In this document: positions 7,079-23,882 of the stretch, piece by piece
Position numbering within the stretch: the first letter of the stretch is position 1
How the letters are laid out: each line of letters starts with the position of its first letter
Origin: an uncultured Pseudomonadota bacterium
GTDB lineage: Bacteria > Oederibacteriota > Muellerivitia > Muellerivitales > Muellerivitaceae
DNA length: 64,000 bases
Direction: 5' to 3'
NCBI GenBank assembly: GCA_963836235.1
Contig: CAWIIP010000002.1
Location: 1,952,001-2,016,000 of the forward strand
The notes under the pieces: model-generated
What the model was told of the DNA's origin: nothing
Seen by the model: only the letters and a program-made list of their open reading frames with translations
Database searches by the model: none
Made by a program: the position numbers and the translations under genes

Positions 7079-7777
7079 TCATTCCATTTTGAGCCGGTAT
7101 CCCACACCCGATTCGGTGACAATATACCTGGGCCGGTCGGGATCGGCCTCTATTTTCTGGCGTAGTTGGTAAACGTAAATTCTCAGGTATTGCACCTGGT
7201 CGCCGCTGGCTGGGCCCCAAACTTCCTGCAAAATCTGTTTTTGGGTGACGACTTTCCCCGCGTGGCGGATGAGAAAGGCCAGAAGGTCGTACTCGTTAGG
7301 AGTTAAATGCACTTCCTTACCCCGAACCGTGACGACCCGGGCGGAAAGATCCACTTTGAAGTCGGGGGTTTCGAAAACTGGGTCCTGTTTCCCTCCCTGT
7401 TTCACCGTCTGGGCGTGCCGAAGGGCCACTCGGATGCGGGCCATGAGTTCCCCCACGTCAAAGGGTTTGGTGAGGTAGTCGTCGGCCCCGGCGTCGAGTC
7501 CCGCGATCTTATCTTTTTCCTTGCCCCGGGCCGTGATGATGATGATGGGTGTGGTGGTCCATTCCCGCAGGCGTTTTACGACTTCCAATCCATCCAGGTC
7601 GGGAAGTCCCAGATCCAAAAGGATAATATCGGGGTTGTGGGATGAGGCTAGGGCCAAACCTTCCTCACCCTTAACGGATTCCAACACCTTGAAGCCCTGG
7701 CTTTGAAGGGTGGGTTTCAAGAAGCGCCGGATGGCAAGTTCGTCCTCAATGATCAAAACGGTTCCGCTGTCAGCCAT
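7079..7777 (-). CDS. kdpE: KdpE response regulator
   Basis: LDLGLPDLDG receiver, GADDYLTKPF, winged helix; directly downstream of kdpD. Confidence 0.93.
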   Translation of the reverse strand: MADSGTVLIIEDELAIRRFLKPTLQSQGFKVLESVKGEEGLALASSHNPDIILLDLGLPDLDGLEVVKRLREWTTTPIIIITARGKEKDKIAGLDAGADDYLTKPFDVGELMARIRVALRHAQTVKQGGKQDPVFETPDFKVDLSARVVTVRGKEVHLTPNEYDLLAFLIRHAGKVVTQKQILQEVWGPASGDQVQYLRIYVYQLRQKIEADPDRPRYIVTESGVGYRLKME

Positions 7778-7796: not shown

Positions 7797-10493
7797 TTAA
7801 GCTTTTTCTTGGTTCGTCATCAAATCACTTTTCAAGGGCAGCGTGAAACGGAAGAGGGACCCGCCACCCGGCCCATTTTCAGCCGAAATCGTTCCGCCAT
7901 GAATCTCAATGATACCCTTACAAATGGAAAGTCCCAAGCCCGCTCCGCTCTTGGTTTCCTTTTGGGGTCCCCGGTAAAACTTCTCGAATAATCGGGGAAG
8001 ATCGGCTTCGGGGATTCCCGGCCCCCTGTCCGCCACTTCCATGACCAACCGGTTTTCCTTAACTTCCGCCGAGATATCGATAGGGGTTCCGTCGGGTGTG
8101 TATTTGAGGGCGTTGTCCAGGAGGTTCACCAGCACCTGTTCGATCAAAAGGGCGTCCATGGGGACCAAGGGGAGTTCGGGGGTGATTTGGGTGGTGAGGG
8201 AGCGGGATCCCAGCCTTCCCTCAACCCGTGCAATGGCCGATCCGATAATTTCCGCCGGGATATGCAGTTCCTTCCTCAATTGAACCGCGCCCGATTCGAG
8301 TTTGGTCATTTCCAAAAGATTATTCACCAGCCGTTCCAAACGCTCGGCTTCGTCGTGGATGTTTTCCAAAAGATCCCGGCGAGTCGCCGTCGGGAGGGAT
8401 TCCCCGTTATCCAACAGGCTGCTAGCCGAACCGGTGATGGCGGCCAAGGGCGTTCGCAAGTCGTGGGATACCGAACTCAAAAGGGAACTGCGCAGCCTTT
8501 CGGTTTCCACCTGCATCTGGGTTTGCTGCTGCTTTTCCGCCAGCTTGTCGCCGGCCACCGCCAACGCGGTCTGGTGGGCGAAGGCCTCCAACAAGTGCAA
8601 TTGCTCGGGAATTAAAAGTTTTTCAGGGTTGGATGGTTTCACCCCCAGGGCACCCACCGGAGCGCCGGAGGCCAACAAGGGTACGTAAAGCGCCTCCGTG
8701 CCGGGCAAAGTGTCGGTGCCCCGGCCCGCCATCTGGCCCAGGTCGAAAGCCCAGTGGGCCACGCCCATTTCCTTGGCGGTCAGGTTAAATTCATTCATCG
8801 CCCCACAATGGACTTTCAGCCGCCCGTTTTCATCGGGTAAAAAGGCGATGACGGAACTTTCAAAGACCTCGGAGATATGTTTGACCGCGATCTCTAAAAT
8901 TTCCTCAGTGCCCCGGGTGGAGGCCAACTCCCGCGACAGGGAGTAAAGGGCGGCAGTCCGCCGTTCCCGAAGGCGGGAAAGCTTGGCCTGGTTCCTGATC
9001 CTTACCGTCAAGTTACTGATAGAAAGGCCCACCAAGAGCATGACGAGGAACATAAAAATATATTGGGTGTCGGATACCGCGAAGGAGAAACGCGGGGGAA
9101 CGAAAAAGAAGTCGAAAGCGATGACGCTTAAAAAGGAAGCCAACGTGGAAGGGCCTAGGCCCTGGCGGTAGGAAAAGGCCAGTATGCCAAGCAGGTACAC
9201 CATAATGAGATTGGCCAGGTCCACTCTCGGAAATAGCAGCCAAGCTACACCGGTACTGATGGCTACCGTTAATAAGGAATAGCCATAACCCTTCCAGTCG
9301 ATGGATCTCTTGGACAGACCCGTTTGGGTCCGTCTTTTCTCTCTTAAATCGGCGATTTCGCCTTTGGTAGCGTAAACATCGATGTCCCCACTAGCCCTTA
9401 AAAGCTGATCCACGGGGGAAGGCTTTAATAGGCTTCGCCAGGAATATTGCGGGGGTTTGCCGATGAAGATCTTGGTGATGTTCCGTTCCCGGGCATAATC
9501 CATGACTTCCTCGGCGAAATTTTGGCCGCTTAAGGTGGCGGTTTCAGCTCCCAATTGTTCGGCCAAACGAAGGTGTTGGATGGCCCGGGTGCGCAATTCT
9601 TCCGAAAGGCCGGCCTGGGAAGGCGTTTCAACGTAAAGAGCTATCCAATTGGAGCGCAGGGATTTGGCCATACGGTGTGCGGCCCGCACCAGATTGGCCG
9701 ATGAGGGGCTGGGGGATACGCAAACCAAAATCTTGTCCGCTGTGGCCCAAGTTTGGGTGATGGCCTTGGTTTTTCGGTAGTCCTGCACCTGGTCATTGAC
9801 ACGGTCAGCGGTAATCCGCAGGGCCATTTCACGGAGCGCGATCAGATTGCCTTTGCGGAAGAAATTTTTGACGGCCCGCTGGGCCGCCTCGGCCATGTAA
9901 ACCTTTCCTTCCTGGAGGCGCTTTAAGAGGTCGTCGGGAGGGAGGTCAATCAACTCCACCTCATCGGCCGTTTCCAAAACCTTGTCTGGGAGGGTTTCAC
10001 GCACGACGACGCCGGTGATCTGGGCCACGATGTCGTTCAGACTTTCCAGGTGTTGGACATTGAGAGTGGAATAGACGTTCACCCCCAGGTCCAAGAGTTC
10101 CTGAACATCTTGCCAGCGTTTCAAATGCCGGGCGCCGGGCGCGTTGGTATGGGCCAATTCGTCGACCAAAAGAAGGCCGGGTTTGCGTTTCAGGGCCCCG
10201 TCAATGTCGAATTCCTTCAGCTTGGCTCCGCGGTATTCCAGTTCCTGGGAAGGAAGAATTTCGAGCCCCTCCAGCATGGCCGCTGTTTCCTTACGTCCAT
10301 GGGTTTCCAAAAGGCCCACCACCACGTCCACCCCCTCGGCCTTTTTGGCCCGGGCGGCTTCCAGCATCGAATAGGTTTTTCCCACGCCGGGCGAGGAGCC
10401 GAAAAAAATCTTCAGCTTGCCCCTTTTTTCCTGCGCGGCTTCCATTTGGACACGGTTGAGGAGCTGGTCGGGATCGGGGCGTTTGTCGTTCAT
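7797..10493 (-). CDS. kdpD: Full-length K+-sensing histidine kinase KdpD
   Basis: GKLKIFFG..PGVGKTY, VDELAHTN, USP domain, 4 TM, GAF, SHDLRTPL HisKA, HATPase. Confidence 0.97.
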   Translation of the reverse strand: MNDKRPDPDQLLNRVQMEAAQEKRGKLKIFFGSSPGVGKTYSMLEAARAKKAEGVDVVVGLLETHGRKETAAMLEGLEILPSQELEYRGAKLKEFDIDGALKRKPGLLLVDELAHTNAPGARHLKRWQDVQELLDLGVNVYSTLNVQHLESLNDIVAQITGVVVRETLPDKVLETADEVELIDLPPDDLLKRLQEGKVYMAEAAQRAVKNFFRKGNLIALREMALRITADRVNDQVQDYRKTKAITQTWATADKILVCVSPSPSSANLVRAAHRMAKSLRSNWIALYVETPSQAGLSEELRTRAIQHLRLAEQLGAETATLSGQNFAEEVMDYARERNITKIFIGKPPQYSWRSLLKPSPVDQLLRASGDIDVYATKGEIADLREKRRTQTGLSKRSIDWKGYGYSLLTVAISTGVAWLLFPRVDLANLIMVYLLGILAFSYRQGLGPSTLASFLSVIAFDFFFVPPRFSFAVSDTQYIFMFLVMLLVGLSISNLTVRIRNQAKLSRLRERRTAALYSLSRELASTRGTEEILEIAVKHISEVFESSVIAFLPDENGRLKVHCGAMNEFNLTAKEMGVAHWAFDLGQMAGRGTDTLPGTEALYVPLLASGAPVGALGVKPSNPEKLLIPEQLHLLEAFAHQTALAVAGDKLAEKQQQTQMQVETERLRSSLLSSVSHDLRTPLAAITGSASSLLDNGESLPTATRRDLLENIHDEAERLERLVNNLLEMTKLESGAVQLRKELHIPAEIIGSAIARVEGRLGSRSLTTQITPELPLVPMDALLIEQVLVNLLDNALKYTPDGTPIDISAEVKENRLVMEVADRGPGIPEADLPRLFEKFYRGPQKETKSGAGLGLSICKGIIEIHGGTISAENGPGGGSLFRFTLPLKSDLMTNQEKA

Positions 10494-10555
10494 GGAGTGA
10501 TTTTACGGCTCATCGGCGGCCACTGTCCATGAAACGGACCATCAAACTCCTTTAT

Positions 10556-10622
10556 TTTAATTTTTCCCTTATGCCTTGGGACTCCCTCTTAACAGCATCT
10601 TTATCCGGTTTCGCCTTATCTT
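10556..10622 (+). promoter_or_regulatory. Predicted KdpE-activated promoter of the kdp operon
   Basis: Half-sites TTTAAT(10556), CCTTAT(10567), CTTAAC(10588), CTTTAT(10599) spaced 11/21/11; candidate -10 TATCTT at 10617. Confidence 0.6.
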
Positions 10623-10718
10623 CTCTTCGACGGAAGATGAATGTCATCTTGTGTGACATGAATCATAAGTCAATTTGAAAAAGGGGCGAATAATGAATCC
10701 GCCCCGAAGAGGTGTGCC

Positions 10719-10865
10719 ATGACAAGGATATTGTTCCTGCTTAGTCCAATCATTTTCAGCGGGCTTTGCCTCCTGTTGGGGGAGACTTTCAACTGGCTGA
10801 AAAGGAGCCGCGGGGAGAGCGACTTCACGACGAAAATAGTTTTATCCCATCCGAGGAGGAAATAA
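10719..10865 (+). CDS. 48-aa single-TM small protein MTRILFLLSPIIFSGLCLLLGETFNWLKRSRGESDFTTKIVLSHPRRK
   Basis: GAGGTG RBS; hydrophobic N-terminus; stop 2 nt before the next ATG. Confidence 0.5.
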   Translation: MTRILFLLSPIIFSGLCLLLGETFNWLKRSRGESDFTTKIVLSHPRRK

Positions 10866-10867
10866 CC

Positions 10868-10966
10868 ATGTTGGAATTCTGGTGTGTAGCAATTTTCGTG
10901 GGGCTGTCCGCGTCGTCGATCTGGCTGATCTACGCCCTGGACGGAATGATGGGGAGTGAACCATGA
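10868..10966 (+). CDS. 32-aa hydrophobic peptide upstream of kdpF, MLEFWCVAIFVGLSASSIWLIYALDGMMGSEP
   Basis: GAGGAGG RBS; ATGA overlap with kdpF. Confidence 0.72.
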   Translation: MLEFWCVAIFVGLSASSIWLIYALDGMMGSEP

Positions 10967-11052
10967 ACCTGACTTACCTTATTAGTGGAATCGTTTCGGC
11001 GTTGCTTCTGGCCTACCTTTTGGTGGCGCTCCTGAAGCCGGAGAAGTTCTAA
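10963..11052 (+). CDS. kdpF: KdpF subunit MNLTYLISGIVSALLLAYLLVALLKPEKF
   Basis: Canonical YL..ALL.PEKF C-terminus; lies just before kdpA; absent from the ORF track. Confidence 0.92.
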   Translation: MNLTYLISGIVSALLLAYLLVALLKPEKF

Positions 11053-11133
11053 GGCGGCCTTTCGCCGCCTTGCGGTGGTTCAAGTGAGCCGTCGTTGTTT
11101 GCAAGACGGTTAGATTAAGAATGGAGAATAAGA

Positions 11134-12933
11134 ATGAATACCAATCAATGGATGCAGATCATCATTTTCTTCGTGGTACTCCTGGCCCTGGTAAAACCCT
11201 TGGGAACTTATATGGCCCGGGTTTACGGGGACAAACCCTTCTTCATGGAAAAACTGATCGGCTGGCTGGAAAGGCTGATCTACCGGATTTGCGGCATCAA
11301 CCCGAAGAAGGAAATGGACTGGAAGGGTTATGCGCTTGCCATGCTGGCCTTCAATATCATGGGGGGGATCTTCCTTTACACCCTCATGCGCGTCCAGCAA
11401 TGGCTACCCCTGAACCCGGCGGGCCAGTCCGCGGTCCCGCCCGACCTTTCCCTCAACACCGCCGTCAGTTTCATCACCAACACCAACTTCCAGTTCTACG
11501 GCGGGGAGACCACCCTCAGCTACCTGACCCAGATGTGCGGCATGACGGTGCAGAACTTCGTCTGCGCGGCATCCGGGCTGGCGGTCATGATCGCCCTCAT
11601 CCGGGGCATCGCCCGGAAGGAAACCACCAAGATCGGCAATTTTTGGGCCGACCTGGTCCGGGGCACCCTTTATATCGTCCTGCCCATGAGTTTCATCTTC
11701 GCCCTCGTCCTGCTCCAACAGGGGACGCCCCAGACCTTCGCCGCTTACCCCAGCGCCACGCTGGTCCAGCCGACTTCCTATGACCAGCCGGTGACGACCG
11801 CGGCCGGGGCGCCGGTGACGGGCAAGGACGGCAAACCCGAGACAACGCATGTGGCGGTGACCGAACAGCCTATCGCCCTGGGACCCATGGCCTCGCAGAT
11901 ATCGGTCAAGCAGCTTTTCACCAACGGGGGCGGTTTCATGAACGTCAACTCCGCCCATCCTTATGAGAACCCCACGCCATTGACCGATTTCCTTGAGCTC
12001 ATGGCCGTTTTCCTCATTTCCGTCGCCCAGTTCTACACCTTCGGCGTGATGGTCAAGGACCGGCGCCAGGGATGGGCGCTGATTATCGCCATGTTCCTCA
12101 TCTTCGCGCCGATGTTCTACCTGTGTTTCGCCTCCGAGCAAGGTGGGAACCCGGTCTTGAACAAGCTGACCATGGGGACGCATGGGGAAACTCTCCATGA
12201 CGGCAATATGGAGGGTAAGGAAGTGCGCTTCGGCATCGTCAATTCCACCCTTTGGGCCACGGCCTGTACGGCCACTTCCAACGGTTCGGTCAACTCCATG
12301 CACGATTCCTATACGCCCCTGGGGGGCCTGGTGCCCCTTTGGCTGATTGAATTGGGGGAGGTTATTTTCGGCGGGGTGGGCTGCGGGCTTTACGGCATGC
12401 TGGCCTTCGTCGTCGTGGCGGTTTTCGTGGCGGGGCTCATGGTGGGCCGAACCCCCGAGTACCTGGGGAAGAAGCTCGGGGCCTTCGAGACCAAGATAGC
12501 CTCCATCGCCATCCTGGTTCCGGCGCTCCTGACCTTGATTTGCACGGCCATCGCGGTGGTCTCCGACGGCGGCAAGGCCGGCCCCTCGAATCCCGGCGCG
12601 CACGGGTTCTCCGAAATCCTATACGGTTTTGCCTCCATGACCAACAACAACGGCAGCGCCTTTGCCGGGCTTAACGGCAATACCTTTTATGAACTGTTGG
12701 GGGCGGCGGCCATCTGGTTCGGGCGTTTCTGGATCAAGATTCCCGTACTTGCCCTGGCGGGAAGCCTGGCCAAAAAGAAGGTCGTGCCGGAAAGCGCGGG
12801 AACCCTCGCGACCCATACGCCCCTGTTTATCATCATGCTGATCTCCACGGTTTTGATCGTCGGGGCACTGGTGTTCTTCCCGGCCATGGCCCTAGGCCCT
12901 ATCGTGGAGCATTTAAAGATGCTGAAAATGTGA
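11134..12933 (+). CDS. kdpA: K+-transporting ATPase subunit A
   Basis: NTAVSFITNTN.Q.Y.GE, TNGGGF, NSAHPYENP, SNGSVNSMHDS, NNNGSAFAGL. Confidence 0.98.
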   Translation: MNTNQWMQIIIFFVVLLALVKPLGTYMARVYGDKPFFMEKLIGWLERLIYRICGINPKKEMDWKGYALAMLAFNIMGGIFLYTLMRVQQWLPLNPAGQSAVPPDLSLNTAVSFITNTNFQFYGGETTLSYLTQMCGMTVQNFVCAASGLAVMIALIRGIARKETTKIGNFWADLVRGTLYIVLPMSFIFALVLLQQGTPQTFAAYPSATLVQPTSYDQPVTTAAGAPVTGKDGKPETTHVAVTEQPIALGPMASQISVKQLFTNGGGFMNVNSAHPYENPTPLTDFLELMAVFLISVAQFYTFGVMVKDRRQGWALIIAMFLIFAPMFYLCFASEQGGNPVLNKLTMGTHGETLHDGNMEGKEVRFGIVNSTLWATACTATSNGSVNSMHDSYTPLGGLVPLWLIELGEVIFGGVGCGLYGMLAFVVVAVFVAGLMVGRTPEYLGKKLGAFETKIASIAILVPALLTLICTAIAVVSDGGKAGPSNPGAHGFSEILYGFASMTNNNGSAFAGLNGNTFYELLGAAAIWFGRFWIKIPVLALAGSLAKKKVVPESAGTLATHTPLFIIMLISTVLIVGALVFFPAMALGPIVEHLKMLKM

Positions 12934-13021
12934 AAACCAGTCGTCAGTCGGCAGTCCGCGGTCGGCAGCAAAGACTTCCAAAGCACTTACTGAAAACCAC
13001 TGACTGCCCCAAGGTGCGCAG

Positions 13022-13288
13022 ATGTTACAGATAGAAAAGGAAATGATCGGACTGCTGATGAAGGGGGCTTCCACCCCGATGGAGAACATCCAGGTTTCTT
13101 TTTTCCTGGTGGCCTGGTCCGCGTTGTTACTGGCCGTATTAAGGATGGTTCAACATGGCGAAGAAAAACAGGGCTTCACGCAAGCTGAAGGTATCCAAGA
13201 ACTCGCGAGGGATTTCGCGAAAAAAACCGGGGCCGAAACGCAAACCAAAGCCCGCCCCCCGGTCCGGCGGAAGGTTAATAGCAAATAA
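13022..13288 (+). CDS. Possible small single-TM protein between kdpA and kdpB
   Basis: AAGGTG upstream; one hydrophobic segment [16 protein letters not shown]. Confidence 0.35.
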
Positions 13289-13334
13289 AGTTTTGATTCA
13301 AGAGTTGCCAGATTCGAAAAGAGGAGAAAAGAAA

Positions 13335-15407
13335 ATGACAGAACACACGAAAGAACGAAAACTGTTTGAGGGCGAGATTACCCGTAAGGCGGTCCTCGAG
13401 TCCTTCAAAAAGCTGAACCCGGCCCACATGGTCAAGAACCCGGTCATGTTCACCGTTTGGGTCGGCAGCGTCTTGACCACAGGGCTTTGGCTGCAAGCCA
13501 TTTCCGGCAAGGGGGAGGCCGCCGCCGGCTTCATTTTCGAGGTTTCCCTGTGGCTGTGGTTCACGGTGCTTTTCGCCAATTTCGCGGAAGCCATGGCCGA
13601 GGGCCGGGGCAAGGCCCAGGCCGACACCCTGCGCAAGAGCCGCCAGGAAGTGAAGGCCAAGAAACTGGCCAAGCCCGAGAAGGATTCCAAGATGAGTGAA
13701 GTCCTGTCCGGCGACCTGCGCAAGGGCGACCTGGTGCTGGTGGAAGCGGGGGATTTCGTTCCCGCGGACGGGGAAGCAGTGGTGGGCGTGGCCATGGTGG
13801 ACGAATCGGCCATCACCGGCGAATCGGCCCCCGTGGTGAGGGAATCCGGTGGGGACCGCAGCGCGGTCACTGGCGGCACCAAGGTCATTTCCGACTGGCT
13901 TATCATCAAAGTTTCATCCAATCCGGGCGAGTCCTTCCTGGACCGCATGATTTCCATGGTGGAGGGCGCCAAGCGGCAGAAGACGCCCAACGAGATCGCC
14001 CTGAACATCCTCCTGGCGGCCTTGACCATCGTGTTCCTCATCGTCTGCGCCACCCTGCTGCCCTTTTCCATCTATAGCGTGGCGGTTTCGGGCTCGGGCC
14101 TGGTGGTGACCGTGACCGTTTTGGTGGCCCTTTTCGTGTGCCTGGCGCCTACCACCATCGGCGGTTTGCTATCGGCCATCGGCATCGCGGGCATGGATCG
14201 CATGATCCAGGCCAATGTCATCGCCATGTCGGGCCGGGCGGTTGAGGCCGCGGGTGACGTGGACATGCTTTTACTTGATAAAACCGGCACTATCACTTTG
14301 GGCAACCGCCAAGCTACCGAATTTATCCCTGCCGATGGCGTGGACATCAAGGAACTGGCTGAGGCCGCCCAACTTTCCTCGCTTTCGGACGAAACGCCCG
14401 AAGGGCGCAGTATCGTGGTTTTGGCCAAGGAAAAGTACGGGCTACGGGGGCAGGAGATTCACGACTTGCACGCCACTTTCGTGCCCTTCACGGCGCAAAC
14501 CCGCATGAGCGGCGTGGATATTGGGAAGCGCGCCATTCGCAAGGGAGCTGCCGAATCCATTGAGAACTACGTGAAAGACCAGGGGGGGAAATATCCGGAT
14601 GACGTGCGCAAGGGTGTGGATTCCATCTCACGCCTGGGTGGTACGCCCCTGGTGGTGGCCGATGGGAAAAGGGTCATGGGCGTCATCTATTTGAAGGACA
14701 TCGTCAAGGGAGGAATCCAGGAACGCTTCGCGGAATTGAGACGCATGGGCATCAAGACCGTAATGATCACGGGCGACAACCCCCTGACCGCCGCGGCCAT
14801 CGCGGCGGAAGCCGGCGTGGACGACTTTTTGGCCCAAGCCACGCCGGAAGCCAAACTGAAGCTCATCCGGGAATCCCAGGCGGGAGGCCGCCTGGTGGCC
14901 ATGGCGGGGGACGGCACCAACGACGCGCCGGCCCTGGCGCAAGCCGATGTGGCGGTGGCCATGAACACGGGCACCCAGGCCGCCAAGGAAGCGGGCAACA
15001 TGGTGGATTTGGATTCCAACCCCACCAAGCTGATCGAGGTGGTGAAGATCGGCAAACAGCTCCTCATGACCCGGGGTTCGCTGACCACCTTCTCCATCGC
15101 CAACGACGTGGCGAAATATTTCGCCATCATTCCGGCGGCCTTCGCGCTGACCTATCCGGAGCTCAACACCCTGAACATCATGCACCTGGCCACGCCGCAG
15201 TCGGCCATTTTGTCCGCCGTCATCTTCAATGCGGTCATCATCGTGTTCCTGGTGCCCCTGGCCCTCAAGGGGGTGAAGTACCGGCCCGCTTCGGCTTCCA
15301 AGCTATTACAGGATAATTTCCTGATATATGGGGTGGGGGGACTGATCGTGCCTTTTATCGGAATCAAGTTGATCGACATGATTTTAGTGGGATTGGGATT
15401 AGTCTAA
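13335..15407 (+). CDS. kdpB: K+-transporting ATPase subunit B
   Basis: GAGGAG RBS before MTEHTK; [25 protein letters not shown]. Confidence 0.98.
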
Positions 15408-15425
15408 GAAAAGGAAAAGGTAAGA

Positions 15426-15536
15426 TTTACCGCGAAGGCGCGAAGAACACGAAGAAAGTCATTGCGATGAAAAAGAAATACTTGCTTTTGAAAATAGCCG
15501 GTGTTTTCGCGGACTCCGCGTCTTCGCGGTGAAAAT
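15426..15536. repeat. Intergenic long imperfect inverted repeat with 9-nt CGCGAAG-type units
   Basis: TTTACCGCGAAGGCGCGAAGAACACGAAG ... TTCGCGGACTCCGCGTCTTCGCGGTGAAA. Confidence 0.6.
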
Positions 15537-15549
15537 TTAGGAGGATTAC

Positions 15550-16143
15550 ATGTTTAAAGAATTAGGAATTCAATTCAGGATCTCATTGGCCGCCATGGTG
15601 TTTTTTACCCTCTTTTGCGGCCTCATTTACCCGGGGGTGGTGACCTTGGTGGGGCAGGCCGTGTTTCCCCGCCAAGCCAACGGCAGCCTGATCGAAGTGA
15701 ACGGAAAAACGGTGGGGTCGGAACTCATCGGCCAGCCTTTTGACGACCCTAAGTATTTCTGGGGCCGGCCTTCCGCGACCTCTCCTTTTGCCTACAACGC
15801 CGCCAATTCCAGCGGTTCCAACCTGGGCCCGACCAATCCGGCCTTTATCAGCTCCGTTAAGGCCAACGTGGACGCCCAGCGCAAGGCCAATCCGGACATG
15901 GCGGACAAGCCCGTGCCGATGGACCTGGTGACGGCCTCGGGATCGGGGCTGGACCCCCACATCAGCCCGGCGGGCGCCGAGTACCAGGCGGCCCGCGTGG
16001 CCAAGGTTAGGAACCTGGCCCCTGCCAAGGTGGAAGAATTGATCGCCCAAAATACCGATGGCCGCTGGCTGGGGTTCATCGGCGACCCGGGAGTAAACGT
16101 GTTGAAACTCAACCTCGCCCTGGACGCTTTGGACTCAAAGTAA
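15550..16143 (+). CDS. kdpC: K+-transporting ATPase subunit C
   Basis: [43 protein letters not shown]. Confidence 0.98.
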
Positions 16144-16176
16144 ACCGTTCGGTACGACGATTGCTGAGGGGGTTCC

Positions 16177-16518
16177 ATGAAAAAAATTGAGGCCATTGTC
16201 CGGCCCGAGAATTTCGAGAAAATCAAAGCCGCGATGGAAAGGGTCGGCTACGACGGAGTGACCCTGACCGAGGTGGAAGGCCAGGGGCGCCAGAAGGGCC
16301 TGGCCCAGCAGTTTAAGGGCTACAAATTCAACGTGGACTTTTTGCCTAAATTAAAAATGGAAATTGTGGCCGCCGACGGCGACGTCGCGAAGATCGTCCA
16401 GGCTATCCTGGGGACGAAGACCGGCGGACAGGCGGGGGACGGCAAGATATTCGTGTATGGTATTGAGGAAGCCTATCGCATCCGTGACGGAGAAAAAGGG
16501 GAAAAGGTTGTTTCCTGA
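16177..16518 (+). CDS. PII family signal transduction protein at the end of the kdp operon
   Basis: MKKIEAIVRP, G.GRQKG, FLPK, GDGKIFV; 33 nt after kdpC. Confidence 0.95.
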   Translation: MKKIEAIVRPENFEKIKAAMERVGYDGVTLTEVEGQGRQKGLAQQFKGYKFNVDFLPKLKMEIVAADGDVAKIVQAILGTKTGGQAGDGKIFVYGIEEAYRIRDGEKGEKVVS

Positions 16519-16630
16519 GGGGAAGTTCCGAGCGGGGCTTGCTTGGAGGGTGGGGATGTCCTTGATGCAAGAGGATTAAATCGGGCTAGGTGCGGAAATA
16601 ATGTTTCCTGCTTTCCGGTGAAGGCCATTT

Positions 16631-16697
16631 TTTTATTGTTTCTTAATATCCAGGGGTTCCTTCCTAAGAGAATTTTAATCTCTCTTTGTTCTAAGCT
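16631..16697 (+). promoter_or_regulatory. Predicted KdpE-type promoter of micropeptide 1
   Basis: TTTTAT(16631), CTTAAT(16642), CCTAAG(16663), TTTAAT(16674) spaced 11/21/11; -10 TAAGCT at 16692, same offset as in the kdp promoter. Confidence 0.55.
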
Positions 16698-16735
16698 TTT
16701 CTTAGATGTTTGTAGTTTAGTTTGAGGAGGGCGAA

Positions 16736-16816
16736 ATGGATTCAGGCATTCTGTCGTTTTTGATTTTGGGCGCCATGCTTTTACTGGCGGGTTTTTATTT
16801 GAAAGAGTATAAATGA
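16736..16816 (+). CDS. Membrane micropeptide 1, 26 aa, MDSGILSFLILGAMLLLAGFYLKEYK
   Basis: GAGGAGG RBS; own terminator; paralogue of the next two ORFs. Confidence 0.8.
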   Translation: MDSGILSFLILGAMLLLAGFYLKEYK

Positions 16817-16821
16817 TTTTT

Positions 16822-16861
16822 TTAAAAAGACCCTTCGCCCATGGGCGAAGGGTCTTTTTAA
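16822..16861. terminator. 40-bp perfect palindrome, bidirectional terminator
   Basis: TTAAAAAGACCCTTCGCCCA|TGGGCGAAGGGTCTTTTTAA. Confidence 0.85.
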
Positions 16862-16899
16862 TTTGTGAAGATATTTGACGGAAAGTTTTTACGCCTCAA

Positions 16900-16955
16900 G
16901 ATCAGTCTCGAATCTGATTCAAATCATGCGGTTTATACTCCCGGACTCCTATCTT
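16900..16955 (+). promoter_or_regulatory. Crp/Fnr-type class II promoter of micropeptide 2
   Basis: TGAT-TCAA-ATCA at 16915-16926; -10 TATCTT at 16950. Confidence 0.6.
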
Positions 16956-16997
16956 TGGATACTGACGATTGGGAATTTTATTTCAAGGGAGAGAAAA

Positions 16998-17075
16998 ATG
17001 GATTCAGGAGTTTGGTCATTGGTGGTCCTGGGTTTCATCGTCTTGTTGAGCGGCTTTTATTTGAAGGATTATTAA
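16998..17075 (+). CDS. Membrane micropeptide 2, 25 aa, MDSGVWSLVVLGFIVLLSGFYLKDY
   Basis: AAGGGAG RBS; own terminator; shares MDSG...GFYLK[ED]Y with peptide 1. Confidence 0.8.
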   Translation: MDSGVWSLVVLGFIVLLSGFYLKDY

Positions 17076-17088
17076 TTTAAAAATTTTC

Positions 17089-17120
17089 AAAGGCCCTTCC
17101 CCGTGGGAAGGGCCTTTTTT
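17089..17120 (+). terminator. Intrinsic terminator
   Basis: AAAGGCCCTTCCC-CGT-GGGAAGGGCCTTTTTT. Confidence 0.85.
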
Positions 17121-17158
17121 GTTGCGGGACATTTAATTGAAATTTTTTCGGCATTTAG

Positions 17159-17214
17159 GATCAGTTTTAGACCTGATTTAAATCATGGGGCTTTCCCGCG
17201 AGGGGGATTAAGGT
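17159..17214 (+). promoter_or_regulatory. Crp/Fnr-type class II promoter of micropeptide 3
   Basis: TGAT-TTAA-ATCA at 17174-17185; -10 TAAGGT at 17209; same box-to-ATG distance as copy 2. Confidence 0.6.
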
Positions 17215-17256
17215 TGTCTTGTGGTCGCCGTGGATTCCAGTTTGCGGGAGGGGAAA

Positions 17257-17328
17257 ATGAACGTTATATTGCCGGTCGTACTCATTGTTGGTTTTCTTGT
17301 TTTGTCCATCGTCTATTTGCGCGACTAA
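17257..17328 (+). CDS. Membrane micropeptide 3, 23 aa, MNVILPVVLIVGFLVLSIVYLRD
   Basis: GGGAGGGG RBS; single TM; YL[KR][DE] C-terminus as in peptides 1 and 2. Confidence 0.7.
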   Translation: MNVILPVVLIVGFLVLSIVYLRD

Positions 17329-17428
17329 CTTCAAAGTCCTTGGATTGGCCCCAAGGCGAAAAAAGATTTGGATACCGATGGGTGGCATGCCCGTCGGTAT
17401 TTTTATTTAGAGTAGAGGAATAAGCGAA

Positions 17429-17736
17429 ATGCTGGAACTTAGACCCATTTGCGAGAACTGTAAAAGACCCCTGCCGCCCCACTCCAAGGAAGCGATGATC
17501 TGTTCTTCGAGTGCACTTTCTGCCAAAACTGCGTGGATGGAATCCTGCAGAATGTGTGCCCCAATTGCGGCGGGGGTTTTTCTCCCAGGCCGATCCGGCC
17601 GAACACCGATTGGAAAAATGAGAATTGCTTAACCAAATATCCGGCCAGTACCCGGTTCAAACACAACCCGGTGAACGCCACAACCCACCTTGAATTCTCC
17701 GAACACATCAAAAAACTGCCGCCCGAAAAGCGGTAA
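17429..17736 (+). pseudogene. DUF1272 Cys-rich protein with a 1-nt frameshift (or sequencing error)
   Basis: MLELRPICENC...AMICS continues in another frame as FECTFC..C...CPNCGG; one T missing near 17504-17508. Confidence 0.75.
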
Positions 17737-17740
17737 GGGA

Positions 17741-18433
17741 TCAGGGAATTCCCGCTTCCTTTTGAATCATTTCCGGATTCAATATTTTGATCTTCTTCTT
17801 TGCCCGAAGGATGAGTTTTTTCTTCTCCAAATCCCCCAGGTAGCGCATTAGGGTTTCGGGGGCGGTGTCCGAAAGCTCCGACATGTCGGTGCGGGACAAT
17901 TCCATCTGCAGGAAACCGTCGGGCCGGACGCCATAGTTTTTCATTAAAAAACAAAGGACCCGGGCTACCCGCTGTTCGGCGGGCATCTGGGCGGCTCCGA
18001 CCAGCCGGTCCTCCACTTCCCCCAGTTCCATACTGAGACTTTTCAAAAGCAGGTGGACCAACAGTTTGTCTTTTTGGAGGTAGTTGATGAAAAATTCCTT
18101 CTCGATGAAGGCGATCTTCGTATCGAGCAGAGATTCGGCGGTGACTTTGTAGAGCTCCCCTGTCAAAAGGGCCCGGTAGCCGAAAAGATCCCCCTTGCCG
18201 CCCATAAAAGTAATGTGCTGGCGCCCGGCCTTGCCTGATTTGAAGAGCTTGATGATTCCGTGGTGGATGTAATAAACCCCGAAAGGTTCGGTGCCTGTGT
18301 AAAAGATGTCCTGGCGGGGTTTGTAGAGGTGTTCGGTGATGACCGGAGCGCCTTTTTGGGTGGCGGCTTCCAGCAATCCCTGCAAGATTTTATGTTTCTC
18401 GGAAAACAAGCTGTCGTAGAAAGTGGGGTTCAT
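17741..18433 (-). CDS. Crp/Fnr family transcriptional regulator
   Basis: cNMP-binding beta-roll (GDLFGY) and C-terminal HTH (SRTDM...PETLMR). Confidence 0.92.
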   Translation of the reverse strand: MNPTFYDSLFSEKHKILQGLLEAATQKGAPVITEHLYKPRQDIFYTGTEPFGVYYIHHGIIKLFKSGKAGRQHITFMGGKGDLFGYRALLTGELYKVTAESLLDTKIAFIEKEFFINYLQKDKLLVHLLLKSLSMELGEVEDRLVGAAQMPAEQRVARVLCFLMKNYGVRPDGFLQMELSRTDMSELSDTAPETLMRYLGDLEKKKLILRAKKKIKILNPEMIQKEAGIP

Positions 18434-18557: not shown

Positions 18558-20537
18558 TTAAATCACCCGCACTGGCACGATCATCATGTTCACGCCCTTG
18601 AAAAGCAGGCGGCGTTGGATTTCCAAGGCGGTTTGGTTGTGCAGCAGATTCGTCCAAAGGGATTCCTTGGCGAAGATGAGCTTACCCGAGAAGAAGGTCG
18701 CGTCGGAAAAGTCGGCGGAAACCAATTCGCACAGCCTTTCCATCCCGGCGATGACGTCGATATCCTCCACGTGCCGGAAGTCGGCCCGGTAACCCATCTT
18801 GTGGGCCAGGGCTACATATTTCCCTAGGTTTTCCTCGGTATTTTTCCTCAGGTTATCCAGTTCTTCAATCCCCTTGAACTTGCTGGAGTCGATGCGGCCG
18901 ATAGAAACGAAAAGAAAATCCTGGAAACGGTTGGCGAAAAGCTTTTGGATCGAAAAGATGGCGTGGATGCCCAATCCGTTATAGCGCTCCACCATCACCA
19001 CCGCGACCGCTTTGGCTTTATCGCAGGGCCCCAGGGCGGGCTCGCTGGTGTCCCGATCCGGCAAAGGAAGGTTGGTCAGAGCGTCGTCCAGGCGGGTTAG
19101 GGCTTGCTGGACTCCCTTGTAGTGGCGCTTTACCAAGAAACAAATAACGATGAGGACGGTCGTTAAGGCGATGGTCACGAAGCCGCCTTCGAGGAATTTG
19201 GCCATCACGGTCGCTACTAAAATAATGGAAGTCAGAGTCAAACCCAGTCCGTTGATAAAGAACCGGCTTTTCCAATCCTTTTGTTCGCGGCGGGCCTGCC
19301 ACCAGTGGATACACATCGAAAGCTGGGACAGGCTGAAAGTGATATAAACATTGATCGCATAAAGTACGATAAGGGTGTCCACGTTGCCCTTGGCCAGTAT
19401 GAGGATCACTAGGGTCGAGACGCCCATCACGAGAATTCCGTTCATGCGAACCAGCCGGTGGGAAAGGTTGGCGAAGCGGTGGGGAAGCCAGGAATCGGCG
19501 GCCATGTTGGACAAAACGTTGGGGCCGTCGATGAAGCCGGTTTGGGCGGCAATGAAGAGAAGCATGCCTTCCGAAAGTAAGGTCAGGTAGATAAGCCATT
19601 GGCCCAGCGGCAGGCCGAAAGCCGTCCAGGGCCCGAAGATGGCTTTGGCCAGGGTACCGTTCATGGTCTCGTTCTGGACGGCCTGAATATCCCAGAGCAT
19701 GTATAAAAGCAGGATCCCGCCCGCGGTGAAGGCCAGGGAAGTCGCCATGTAAAGCATGGTGCGCTTGCCCGTTTTCACCCTGGGCTCCCTCAGGTTCGCC
19801 AAGCCATTGGAGACCGCCTCAATGCCCGTGTAGGTTCCCCCGCCCAGGCTGTAGGCCGTGAAAAAGATGACGATAAATCCCCAAACCCCCAAAGGCCCCC
19901 CGACAATCTCGTGGGTCTCTCTGAAGGTGCTTTGAACGACGGGTACGATTTGGGAGCCGTGGCCAAGCAATCCCGCCGCGATCAGGATGATATGGGTTCC
20001 CACGAAGACCAGGAAGATGGGAAGAAGGGCGGTCACCGATTCTTTGATGCCCCGCATATTGAGCCAAATCAAAAGAAGAACCAGAAGCACTTCGATGGAC
20101 AGCTTGTGGGCAACGAAAAAAGTCGGCATGAAATCGGCGATAGCGTCCACGCCCGCCGCGATAGAAATGTTGATAGTCAGGATATAGTCCACGATGAGGG
20201 CGGAGCCGGAAATAAGGCCGGCCACGGGATGCAAGAGTTTGCTAGCCACCACGTAACCGCCGCCGCCCGAGGGGAAATGCTCGATCACCTGGCTATAGCT
20301 GGCGGAAATGATGAAGACGGTAGCGGCCACCGCGATGGCGAGGTAGAGGGCGATGTGGTGGTATTGGGCGCCCAGGGCCTTATAGGTTTCCTCGGGGCCG
20401 TAGGCTGAGGAGGACAGCCCGTCGGCTCCCAGTCCCACCCAGGCCAGGAAAGCGATGAGGCTCAGTTTGTGAAAGACATTCTGATCGAGAGGATTTTTGG
20501 CCTTGCCAAAGACAAGTTCTCTTACTTTTTCCACCAT
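18558..20537 (-). CDS. KimA/YdaO-like APC-family K+ transporter
   Basis: ADGLSSSAYGPEE, FPSGGGGY, VDYILT, TGIEAVSNG; cytosolic C-terminal domain; upstream c-di-AMP riboswitch. Confidence 0.9.
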   Translation of the reverse strand: MVEKVRELVFGKAKNPLDQNVFHKLSLIAFLAWVGLGADGLSSSAYGPEETYKALGAQYHHIALYLAIAVAATVFIISASYSQVIEHFPSGGGGYVVASKLLHPVAGLISGSALIVDYILTINISIAAGVDAIADFMPTFFVAHKLSIEVLLVLLLIWLNMRGIKESVTALLPIFLVFVGTHIILIAAGLLGHGSQIVPVVQSTFRETHEIVGGPLGVWGFIVIFFTAYSLGGGTYTGIEAVSNGLANLREPRVKTGKRTMLYMATSLAFTAGGILLLYMLWDIQAVQNETMNGTLAKAIFGPWTAFGLPLGQWLIYLTLLSEGMLLFIAAQTGFIDGPNVLSNMAADSWLPHRFANLSHRLVRMNGILVMGVSTLVILILAKGNVDTLIVLYAINVYITFSLSQLSMCIHWWQARREQKDWKSRFFINGLGLTLTSIILVATVMAKFLEGGFVTIALTTVLIVICFLVKRHYKGVQQALTRLDDALTNLPLPDRDTSEPALGPCDKAKAVAVVMVERYNGLGIHAIFSIQKLFANRFQDFLFVSIGRIDSSKFKGIEELDNLRKNTEENLGKYVALAHKMGYRADFRHVEDIDVIAGMERLCELVSADFSDATFFSGKLIFAKESLWTNLLHNQTALEIQRRLLFKGVNMMIVPVRVI

Positions 20538-20629
20538 GACAGCCTCCCGAAAAAATTTTGACTCAAAATTTTTGAGGCCCCCCAGCGGGGGGCTGAAACC
20601 GGGCCGCCATGTTTCAGACGCGCCCTTCG

Positions 20630-20758
20630 AAGCCTGCGAGGTTAGCTGTCGGGCTCGGCGCGAAAGGCTCGCCGTTCCTTCCCATCAAGTCGGGAAAGGA
20701 ATTAGCCCCAGATCATCGGGTCCCCCGTTCATTCCAGGCGGAATGACTCGGCTATTTG
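20630..20758 (-). ncRNA. c-di-AMP (ydaO/yuaA) riboswitch
   Basis: Minus strand GCCGAGTC...AACGGGGGACCC...TGGGGCTAAT...GAGCCCGACAGCTAACCTCGCAGGC. Confidence 0.93.
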
Positions 20759-20762
20759 CTGA

Positions 20763-20783
20763 GAATCTTTATACTTTTTTAAT
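20763..20783. promoter_or_regulatory. 21-bp element shared with 23888-23908; contains the minus-strand -10 TATAAA and a KdpE-like direct repeat
   Basis: GAATCTTTATACTTTTTTAAT. Confidence 0.65.
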
Positions 20784-21871: not shown

Positions 21872-23710
21872 CTAGCCGACGATGATTAGGTCGGCGGATT
21901 CGGGCAGGCGTTCCGCCAAGTTCTTTAGCATGCGGCCCCGCACCATGCGCCAGAAGAAGGTGCGCTTGGACGATCCCACGAACACCTGCTTGACCTTCAA
22001 TTCCTTGGCGGCCTCGGCGATGGAAAAGCCCGCGTCCTCGGCCATGCGCCAAATGGGGATGCCGGCCACGCCCAACTTTTGCAGTGTCGCGCAGGAATCG
22101 ACCAGTACCTTGATCGCCTCGGGGGTTGGCTTAATCTCCTGGGGCAAGAACAAGCCCGGCATTTCATCCACATAAATTACGTATATATTGTTACGTTTCA
22201 AACCCTTTATATAAATCGACGCATCCTCCAGTAGTTTTGTGTTCACCTGCCTCAGTGCCACGAGAATAGGGGAGGATTCCATGGCGGAAGCCTCGATGGC
22301 TTCTTCCAGCGTCAGGATATTGGAGGCCTCCGGCAGGTCGGCGACGTTGGCTTCGGCTTCGGCGAAGACGGCTACGGCTTTCCGGGAAGCGCCGATGCGG
22401 TGCCAGACTCCGGTAGCTACCAGAATGGTGGCCAGGGTCCCGCCAAACATCAGGGCTTCCGGTTTGTGGAACATGTTAATGACCCAGGCGGCTAAGAGGG
22501 CGATGGTCGTGAAGGCCCCGGTCCAAAATTTGAATCCCCTCACCCCGTCCCTCCAGCGGAGCTTATCGATGGCCAGGGAAGAAAGGGAAAGGGTTCCCAA
22601 GAGGCCGAAATTATAAAGATCGCCCAGGGCATCCACGTTGGCTCGGGTGATGAGGATGATGGCCATGGGCACCAGCCCCGAGATAAGGATGGAAAGATAC
22701 GGCGTTCCAAGGGTTGGGTGCCGTTTCCTTAAAAACGAGGGAAGGAATCCCAGGTCCGAAAGCCGCACGTTCACGTGGTAGTTGCCTACGATCGCGGTGT
22801 TGCAGGCCATGAAAAGCAAAGCCGAGGCCGCCACGACCACCGCCACACCCATGAAGGGCCCGCCGATCTGGAAACCCAGCGCGGACAGGAGGGAATCGGA
22901 TTGGGTTTGTTTGACTGAGTCAGGGAGCAGGTAAAGCACGACGGAGGTCATGGGGGAGGAAATAATAGCGATGGCGATGATGACCCACATCATGGCTTTT
23001 CCGGCGGTGGCCTTGATGGGCAAGCGCATGGAGCCGGAAATCTGGGCGACCGATTCCAAACCCGAATAGGCCAGCCAGGTGGTGGCGTAACCGATCATGA
23101 CGGCACCGAAAGTAATGGGGATGCCGGGATGGGTAATGCTGTGCCACCAGCCGCCCCAGGAATAATGAGGATTGAAGGCAATGGTGCAGAAAGCCCAGCC
23201 CAGGAGAAGAAAGGTTACGATGATTTCGACGGTGGCGAAGCTGGAGGTTACCGACGCCGATTCCTTAATGCCGATCATATTGATGAGCACGAGACAAAGG
23301 AACAAAACCATGGATGCGGCGATGACTAGGTCCTTCGTTTGCGGCATGAGGCTGGAGAGGTAATAGAGGCCCGAGACGCCCGAGATAGCCGATGTCAGGA
23401 AATAATCCACGGTGATAAAAGAGCCGCCGACCAGGGGCAGGAATTCGAAGGCAGAAAAGGCCTCGCGAACCACCGAAACCACGCCGCCGCCGTCCGGACA
23501 GCGCTCGCAAATTTCGACATATTTAAGCGCGATGGAGATAAAAACACCGGTGGTGATGAACTGGGCCAGGGTGGCCAGGTTGCCGATGGAGTTATAGAGG
23601 ATGCCGGGAACGTAAAAGACCGAGGTGCCGATATCCGCGTAAACGATCGCGAAAACCAGGACCCAGCCCAGCTGGTGAACTTTTACGGATGAGGAGTTTG
23701 AATCGGACAA
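21872..23710 (-). CDS. Second KimA/KUP-like APC transporter with C-terminal USP-like domain
   Basis: TTG start after GGAGG; YADIGTSVFY, VDYFLT, YSGLES; the ORF-track N-terminal extension is riboswitch sequence. Confidence 0.88.
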   Translation of the reverse strand: MSDSNSSSVKVHQLGWVLVFAIVYADIGTSVFYVPGILYNSIGNLATLAQFITTGVFISIALKYVEICERCPDGGGVVSVVREAFSAFEFLPLVGGSFITVDYFLTSAISGVSGLYYLSSLMPQTKDLVIAASMVLFLCLVLINMIGIKESASVTSSFATVEIIVTFLLLGWAFCTIAFNPHYSWGGWWHSITHPGIPITFGAVMIGYATTWLAYSGLESVAQISGSMRLPIKATAGKAMMWVIIAIAIISSPMTSVVLYLLPDSVKQTQSDSLLSALGFQIGGPFMGVAVVVAASALLFMACNTAIVGNYHVNVRLSDLGFLPSFLRKRHPTLGTPYLSILISGLVPMAIILITRANVDALGDLYNFGLLGTLSLSSLAIDKLRWRDGVRGFKFWTGAFTTIALLAAWVINMFHKPEALMFGGTLATILVATGVWHRIGASRKAVAVFAEAEANVADLPEASNILTLEEAIEASAMESSPILVALRQVNTKLLEDASIYIKGLKRNNIYVIYVDEMPGLFLPQEIKPTPEAIKVLVDSCATLQKLGVAGIPIWRMAEDAGFSIAEAAKELKVKQVFVGSSKRTFFWRMVRGRMLKNLAERLPESADLIIVG

Positions 23711-23723
23711 GGCCGCGCCTCCG

Positions 23724-23882
23724 AAGCCTGCGGGGTTAGCTGTCGGGCTCGGCGGGAATGCTCGCCGGTTCAATCCTCTTCTTTAGAGGGTGAAGCTTAG
23801 CCCCGAAAAACCTGGGTCCCCCGTTTGGCCTTTCGCCTGTTCCGAGGTTCTGGAACATCGCGTCAAGGTCAATTCGGCTGTT
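23724..23882 (-). ncRNA. c-di-AMP (ydaO/yuaA) riboswitch abutting the RBS
   Basis: Minus strand GCCGAATT...AACGGGGGACCCA...GGGGCTAAG...GAGCCCGACAGCTAACCCCGCAGGC-TTC-GGAGG. Confidence 0.93.

Follow-up and report, generated by a model that had tools for sequence, protein, structure and literature searches.

A new family of single-helix membrane peptides in a potassium-uptake island of uncultured Muellerivitaceae, candidate modulators of potassium uptake

Introduction

Only a few model cases of small membrane peptides that tune transporters or sensor kinases are known, and such peptides nearly always escape gene callers. MgrB and SafA, which act on PhoQ, are each expressed from a response-regulator promoter of their own; a peptide made under the regulator of its own target provides feedback, and one made under a foreign regulator serves as a connector. 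Sarcolipin, phospholamban, and DWORF, which act on SERCA, and MgtS, which acts on MgtA, are single-helix paralogues of 25 to 50 residues with P-type ATPases as targets, some of them competing for one site. Additional small hydrophobic open reading frames (ORFs), one of which lies after kdpC, are reported from kdp operons of Clostridium acetobutylicum (KdpX/Y/Z) and cyanobacteria (KdpG). Two reports describe KdpF as a stabilizer of the Kdp pump and mycobacterial KdpF as also interacting with KdpD in a two-hybrid assay (PMC3618439, PMC10730256). Here, we describe three small ORFs, s1, s2, and s3, in a 64,000-nucleotide (nt) stretch of DNA, referred to as the window, from an uncultured Pseudomonadota bacterium placed in the family Muellerivitaceae (GenBank assembly GCA_963836235.1, contig CAWIIP010000002.1, positions 1,952,001 to 2,016,000). 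The ORFs are embedded in a potassium-uptake island composed of kdpFABC, kdpDE, and KimA-type transporter genes, and they belong to a new, unannotated family that is restricted to this lineage.

Conserved coding genes under purifying selection

The ORFs s1, s2, and s3 are real coding genes under purifying selection. Their successive starts are 262 and 259 nt apart, s1 is 60% identical to s2 and 30% identical to s3, and all three have a purine-rich Shine-Dalgarno sequence 5 to 12 nt 5' of the ATG. The initial annotation of the window had proposed three ORFs with these translations at these positions, a period of about 260 bp, and a strong ribosome-binding site for each unit, and direct checks agreed with it on all of these points. 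In a plain ORF list, s2 and s3 are masked by longer frames with TTG or GTG starts; the start of s3 is likely the ATG at 17257, and the GTG at 17221 falls on the predicted transcript start. Each small ORF is a predicted transcription unit of its own, with a length of roughly 160 to 190 nt. Own terminators had been claimed for s1 and s2 only, and both were recovered; s3 also has one, so that the array extends to about 17410 rather than to 17328. The first terminator had further been called bidirectional. In the terminator scan it is the s2 terminator that is called on both strands, and the s1 palindrome is likewise symmetric, with A and T flanks.

A profile of s1 to s3 matched only three places in the 3.97-Mb genome (E values of 1e-10 to 1.5e-14; next best, E > 2). 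Profile searches of relatives, followed by a scan of the regions around kdp, gathered a family of 30 members in 15 genomes or contigs, with 28 members from 14 genomes and 2 from one metagenome contig. Start, stop, and length are kept in the 30 members, and the alignment is nearly gap-free; lengths range from 21 to 36 residues, with 28 members between 21 and 27. Column 7 of the alignment is Pro or Ser in every member, column 18 is Ser or Ala in 29, and column 21 is Tyr in 28, with an aliphatic residue after it.

The proportion of nonsynonymous differences (pN) was lower than that of synonymous differences (pS) in all 45 within-subtype pairs across six subtypes. For the Met-Asp-Ser-Gly subtype, which includes s1 and s2 and has six members, this was the case in 15 of 15 pairs, and the ratio was 0.08 to 0.51 in the 14 pairs with a computable dS. 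The window copy of the s3 subtype is offset by one residue and was compared without gaps, which inflates its pN. Variable alignment columns numbered 61, 39, and 94 at codon positions 1, 2, and 3, respectively, and the flanks of the ORFs diverge while the peptide sequence is kept. Frame conservation and pN < pS thus bear out the idea of a genuine small-protein family, the profile search of relatives and the dN/dS comparison being the checks that the initial annotation had recommended. Contigs from four public DNA runs were near-identical and of low depth and are uninformative about selection.

Database searches agreed with a family that has escaped annotation. A library of 1.84 billion proteins yielded seven matches at E ≤ 0.001, all of them from this same family, three within wrongly extended frames, and all either unnamed or labeled hypothetical. 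No Pfam or NCBIfam family matched the ORFs s1 to s3. The 66-residue frame containing s2 had no homologue among proteins of 30 to 35 or 36 to 116 residues, an outcome that is mostly due to gene callers passing over ORFs this short. Searches for small membrane proteins linked to Kdp or KimA, in a literature set that did not extend to older subscription papers on additional Kdp peptides, turned up no account of this family. Current annotation in this lineage lacks 30 genes, as well as a conserved 32-codon ORF before kdpF that is described below.

The family resides beside potassium-uptake genes

A profile of 22 rows found matches in 14 of the 31 genomes of the taxonomic family, the window's genome included. 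Among 68 other genomes of the phylum, there was no credible match, and the single weak one lay inside a 567-residue frame. KdpA was present in 23 of the 31 genomes, including all 14 with peptides, and none of the 8 genomes lacking a KdpA match had a peptide. Several of these genomes are incomplete, they are mutually related, and the figures are given as plain counts. A separate locus search with a 5-row alignment gave five loci among metagenome contigs (one new, L028; two identical to genome G010; and two false) and, among genome contigs, no loci beyond those known from the profile searches.

The proposed link to potassium genes was upheld, with 26 of the 30 members adjoining kdp, kdpD/E, or KimA-type genes. 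Twenty members lie no more than about 1.3 kb downstream of kdpC, in 10 genomes; five adjoin kdpD, kdpE, or a BBP2-type porin gene; and one lies between a KdpE paralogue and a gene for a KimA-P-II fusion. Two more are on the 2.6-kb metagenome contig L028 beside a Crp gene, where the gene order (s2-like, s3-like, DUF1272, Crp) is that of the window. The kdp-adjacent position is retained across seven genera, and the copy number is 1 to 4 per genome, with all copies in or near the potassium island. Six other genomes likewise have two or three paralogues in tandem, making the triplet of the window one case of a general pattern.

One subtype, which ends in Phe-Phe-Asn-Asp/Glu, begins 26 to 42 nt after kdpC or the P-II gene in six genomes and is therefore probably the last gene of the pump operon. 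A related subtype follows kdpC at about 100 to 135 nt in two more genomes. Altogether, eight members located 26 to 135 nt behind kdpC or the P-II gene have no promoter box of their own.

Two types of promoter box

Two types of box precede small ORFs of the family. The type A box of s1 is a pair of 7-bp AT-rich direct repeats that recur with a period of 11 bp; a TAnnnT hexamer lies 13 nt beyond it, and the predicted span of the box is about -43 to -26. A matrix was built from six sites, namely, that of s1, those of four relatives, and that of one porin-kdpE-kdpD operon. The box recurs at a constant distance in nine family members that did not contribute to the matrix, where it ends 33 to 40 nt before the ATG. 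Outside the training sites, the highest-scoring match anywhere in the genome is in the kdp promoter region between kdpD and kdpF, and an orthologous kdp promoter site is also present in genome G001. In all 15 further genomes, the top same-strand match in the 1.5 kb before kdpA lies 200 to 640 nt before kdpF; 13 of these 15 sites score at least 18 bits, and the best opposite-strand scores are at most 12.8. As a measure of background, 380,866 positions gave 13 matches of at least 16 bits, several of which are small-ORF promoters. The box thus precedes kdpF in 17 of 17 genomes examined, and this recurrence makes it a conserved element of the kdpFABC promoter in the lineage.

KdpE of Escherichia coli is reported to bind a pair of AT-rich 6-bp direct repeats separated by 5 bp, which gives an identical 11-bp period (PMC3264566). 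By analogy with this architecture, the type A box is probably bound by KdpE or a paralogue. Since s1 carries the same box as kdpFABC, it would probably be activated by KdpE, together with that operon, when potassium is scarce. Type A boxes also occur at genes for BBP2/OmpL-type porins beside several KdpE paralogues (loci L016, L018, L048, and L062), and genome G001 has three such porin genes interspersed with kdpE-like genes. These porins are probably outer-membrane components of the same regulon.

The type B box of s2 and s3 is an 18-bp inverted repeat overlapping a 12-bp palindrome, the center of which lies 29.5 nt before a TAnnnT hexamer, that is, at -41.5. Class II Crp/Fnr-dependent promoters typically have their binding site at this position, and the core of the palindrome is similar to the FNR-type consensus. 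The genome contains only three strong sites, those of s2 and s3 and one on contig C5 (277116-277505, locus L086). The last precedes a 90-codon ORF that has no Pfam match and is a probable third target of the regulator discussed next. In a scan of relatives that covered their kdp neighborhoods, the box also preceded s3-type genes in G020, G005, and G044, and on L028 it preceded both small ORFs. Members that carry it include two from outside its training set.

A gene for a Crp/Fnr-family regulator lies close to s3 in the window. Its orthologue occurs in only 3 of the 31 genomes (G000, G020, and G044), each time beside a small ORF with a type B box, and also on L028. An FNR-type cysteine cluster is absent from the protein. 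Its gene is located 125 to 160 nt downstream of a riboswitch-controlled KimA gene on the same strand, both in the window and in G020, with a promoter-like site called between the two genes and no terminator called there. Judging from position and co-occurrence, the s2 and s3 promoters are probably served by the adjacent regulator and would be of class II type.

A candidate role in modulating potassium uptake

With confidence only a little above even, we favor the reading that s1 to s3 are single-helix peptides that are induced at low potassium and that are accessory to, or modulate, one of the candidate partners, namely, the Kdp pump, KdpD, or KimA. In this scheme, the three ORFs would be translated into inner-membrane peptides of 23 to 26 residues with one helix each. 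The N-terminal part is without Lys or Arg in all 30 members, and the C-terminal tail has at least one in 20 of them; together with the positive-inside rule, this charge pattern suggests that the N terminus faces out and the C terminus in. The helix would pack against a potassium-uptake membrane protein (the Kdp pump, the KdpD sensor, or KimA), and the peptide would act there as an accessory subunit or a modulator. Several features point to an accessory or regulatory helix: the position in or behind the pump operon, the shared promoter type, the conserved small and aromatic residues along one helix, and the presence of paralogues under two regulators. In our judgment, the Kdp pump ranks first among the candidate targets, followed by KdpD and then KimA. 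A complex prediction of KdpB with s1, made from alignments, scored 0.00 against a mark of 0.32, a value obtained with no controls and for a partner of fewer than 30 residues, which falls outside the calibration of the score; it carries no weight either way on binding. The initial annotation had offered transporter or kinase modulation as one possibility. Location and predicted coregulation make it the best available explanation, and the physical partner would be one of those just ranked.

Several observations weigh against this reading. Nine of the 23 KdpA-bearing genomes have no detectable member, so that the peptides are no obligatory pump subunit and are dispensable for Kdp as such. Two members, both in genome G023, have no potassium gene within their 3-kb locus, and in G005 a type B box is present without a Crp orthologue at an E value of 1e-40 or better. 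The promoter boxes were first picked by eye, and they were assigned to KdpE and Crp from their position and co-occurrence. The genomes of one family are nonindependent samples, and hydrophobic composition alone constrains second codon positions, which somewhat inflates the apparent purifying selection.

A more elaborate form of the favored reading, which we consider unlikely, is that the paralogues are regulin-like competitors under different sensors that dock on one membrane target (the P-type ATPase KdpB or KdpD) and tune it in different directions, so that two potassium-sensing pathways would converge at membrane peptides. The sensors would be KdpDE, which senses potassium directly, and the Crp-family regulator, the gene of which lies just downstream of a KimA gene under a c-di-AMP riboswitch.

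Alternative explanations

The peptides might instead be extra structural Kdp subunits, KdpF-like in serving assembly or stability, with no regulatory role, an explanation that overlaps the one we favor and differs only in excluding regulation. It draws on the boxless members directly behind kdpC or the P-II gene (the Phe-Phe-Asn-Asp/Glu subtype in six genomes and the related subtype in two) and on the 32-codon membrane ORF that overlaps the start of kdpF in all 17 genomes, which makes the pump seem rich in small subunits, as well as on the small Kdp peptides reported from C. acetobutylicum (KdpX/Y/Z) and cyanobacteria (KdpG). Against it, 9 of the 23 genomes with KdpA lack the family, and the family is far more variable than KdpF, with a mean column identity of 34% versus 81%. 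Moreover, production in a fixed proportion to the pump does not sit well with genes that, in the window, form units of their own, two of which are predicted to be under a different regulator. We regard a purely structural role as improbable.

It is very unlikely that the transcripts act as small RNAs or as leader or attenuator elements, with frames that are incidental or have a regulatory part only. In favor of such a role, the predicted transcripts are short and have strong terminators at their ends, s3 directly precedes the DUF1272 gene in both the window and L028, and a conserved stem-loop with an invariant loop follows the s3-type genes. In five sequences (the window, L028, L019, L037, and L057), 29 of 30 cells of this stem are paired and 3 of its 6 pairs are changed on both sides, which makes a second, RNA-level role of the s3-type transcript possible, i.e., a dual function. 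Yet the peptide sequence shows purifying selection, its changes clustering at third positions while the flanks diverge; s1 and s2 have no downstream gene to attenuate before the next unit; and G020 and G044 have no DUF1272 gene behind their s3-type genes. Folds of the three predicted transcripts gave terminators only and no alternative antiterminator fold. The fold z-scores of s2 (-0.9) and s3 (-1.9) were unremarkable, and that of s1 (-4.0) is due to its palindrome. No Rfam family reached its threshold within positions 10400-17800.

The initial annotation had also raised type I toxin-antitoxin systems, in which membrane-damaging peptides would be held in check by antisense RNAs that use bidirectional terminators. 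The peptides are small and of a hydrophobic membrane type, and they form tandem paralogues with their own terminators, of which that of s2 scores on both strands and that of s1 is symmetric. A consensus scan of 16100-17800 gave no promoter-like site on the plus or the minus strand, but the same scan also misses the sense promoters, so the missing antisense call is a weak point. Further evidence against toxins comes from the genomic context. The eight boxless members are probably cotranscribed with the pump, a kdp-adjacent position kept across seven genera is not typical of toxin-antitoxin loci, the one to four copies per genome all stay in or near the island, and the sense promoters bear activator boxes shared with kdpFABC. 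A toxin function is thus not supported, and we rate it as highly unlikely.

Chance open frames in AT-rich intergenic repeats, very short and hydrophobic as is common in a six-frame listing, are excluded by the comparative data already given, that is, by a profile that matches the genome nowhere but at the three ORFs, by 30 homologous frames that share their start, stop, Shine-Dalgarno site, and key residues, by a pN below pS in all 45 pairs, and by seven independent library matches that all belong to the family.

Other features of the potassium-uptake island

Annotation with Pfam and Rfam (Table 1) confirmed that the small ORFs lie between kdp and two KimA-like genes, as had been proposed. Apart from s1 to s3, this lineage seems to have more small membrane peptides, encoded in the kdp operon before kdpF. 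The hydrophobic 32-codon ORF mentioned above is conserved in 17 of 17 genomes examined (the window and loci including L016 and L071 to L085), and its end overlaps the start of kdpF in an ATGA (positions -95 to +4 relative to kdpF). Just 5' of it, many genomes have a second membrane ORF of about 48 codons. Neither ORF had a Pfam or NCBIfam match.

Table 1. Features of the potassium-uptake island in window coordinates
Feature	Positions	Strand	Description
kdpE	7079-7777	-	Pfam Response_reg and Trans_reg_C
kdpD	7797-10493	-	Pfam KdpD, Usp, DUF4118, GAF, HisKA, and HATPase_c
Type A box and -10-like hexamer of kdp operon	10586-10622	+	Promoter element in kdpD/kdpF intergenic region; 22.4 bits
Second membrane ORF	10719-10865		About 48 codons
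32-codon ORF	10868-10966		Hydrophobic
kdpF	10963-11052	+	Canonical; TIGR02115, 1.1e-9
kdpA, kdpB, kdpC	After kdpF; kdpC ends at 16143	+	Pfam KdpA, E1-E2_ATPase/Hydrolase, and KdpC
KdpB N-terminal extension	13155-13330		Lys/Arg-rich
P-II-like gene	16177-16518	+	Pfam P-II
Weak terminator-like stem-loop	16610-16625	+	3' of P-II-like gene; terminator scan
Type A box and -10-like hexamer of s1	16661-16697	+	33.4 bits, top match in genome (training site)
s1	16736-16816	+	26 codons; single hydrophobic helix; Shine-Dalgarno at 16724-16731
s1 terminator	16822-16861	+	Perfect palindrome of 20 + 20 nt; A and T runs on flanks
Type B box of s2	16900-16955	+	-10-like hexamer at 16950-16955
s2	16998-17075	+	25 codons
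s2 terminator	17089-17117	+	Stem-loop with T run; scan positive on both strands
Type B box of s3	17159-17214	+	Geometry as at s2
s3	17257-17328	+	23 codons
3' untranslated stem-loop of s3-type genes	17338-17356	+	6-bp stem, invariant 7-nt loop; 10 to 15 nt after stop
s3 terminator	17370-17402	+	Stem-loop with T run
DUF1272 zinc-ribbon gene	17429-17736		3' of s3; frameshifted
Crp/Fnr-family regulator gene	17741-18433	-	Pfam cNMP_binding and HTH_Crp_2
First KimA-like transporter gene	18558-20537	-
c-di-AMP riboswitch	20616-20763		Before KimA-like gene; 79 bits
Second KimA-like transporter gene	21872-23773	-
c-di-AMP riboswitch	23709-23848		Before KimA-like gene; 44 bits

KdpB carries a very Lys/Arg-rich N-terminal extension of 45 to 60 residues in 13 of 16 aligned sequences from the window and related loci, and the other three begin at the usual place. 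In genome G042 (contig C11, 317097-318837), kdpA is matched in two pieces, the first with an in-frame TAA, indicating either a broken gene or an assembly error. A P-II-like gene ends the kdp operon in the window and in several relatives, and in G010 a P-II domain is fused to the C terminus of a KimA-like transporter (L017, 11409-13448), an arrangement that hints at regulation of potassium transport by P-II-type proteins in the lineage. In two genera, the first small ORF downstream of kdpC is separated from the second by a gene for a 103-residue membrane protein of the YnfA/UPF0060 (SMR-like) type (L037, 8631-8942, with equivalents in G018, G020, G044, and G045). A frameshift of one base near 17505 interrupts the DUF1272 gene behind s3, and the orthologue of this gene on L028 is intact (Pfam E value of 1e-28). 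A DNA contig from a public run, possibly from the source sample, spans the frameshift site without an indel.

Comparison with known small membrane peptides

KdpF is a single-helix peptide of similar size that belongs to the kdp locus and has the same promoter type. A relationship to KdpF, the profile of which includes a conserved C-terminal Pro-Glu-x-Phe end, was nevertheless rejected: there was no Pfam match at an E value of 0.01 and no NCBIfam KdpF match at an E value of 1, the hhalign probability was 1.3%, and the window has a separate, canonical kdpF. KdpF is encoded directly upstream of kdpA, whereas all members of the present family are located downstream of kdpC or elsewhere in the island. 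The family is also multicopy, variable, and absent from 9 of 23 kdp-bearing relatives. KdpX/Y/Z and KdpG, which we compared by description only, are encoded by genes of the operon, unlike the separate units of the window.

MgrB and SafA offer a possible parallel in regulation, in that s1 under a probable KdpE box and s2 and s3 under a second regulator would match the feedback and connector arrangements, respectively. They are not homologous to the family, and they are longer (47 to 65 residues), with functional periplasmic or cytoplasmic parts. If KdpD, a widespread potassium sensor, were the target, s1 to s3 would become the first peptides known to act on it in a feedback or connector role.

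The micropeptides of P-type ATPases offer a parallel in the candidate target, since KdpB is also a P-type ATPase. The Tyr-rich tail of several members recalls the Arg-Ser-Tyr-Gln-Tyr tail of sarcolipin, a resemblance that may be due to chance. Again there is no homology, and the SERCA micropeptides come from a different domain of life. If KdpB were the target, the family would provide bacterial equivalents of the micropeptides acting on P-type ATPases in animals.

Overall, the gene family is solid and its regulation suggestive, in a lineage that is uncultured. The family stands out from most predicted small ORFs for its strong comparative support, its clear setting in a high-affinity potassium uptake locus, and a predicted dual control open to direct testing. 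Its kind, small membrane peptides associated with transporters or sensor kinases, is already known, and this family differs from the known cases in its copy number of 1 to 4, its several subtypes, and its predicted split between KdpE-type and Crp-type control.

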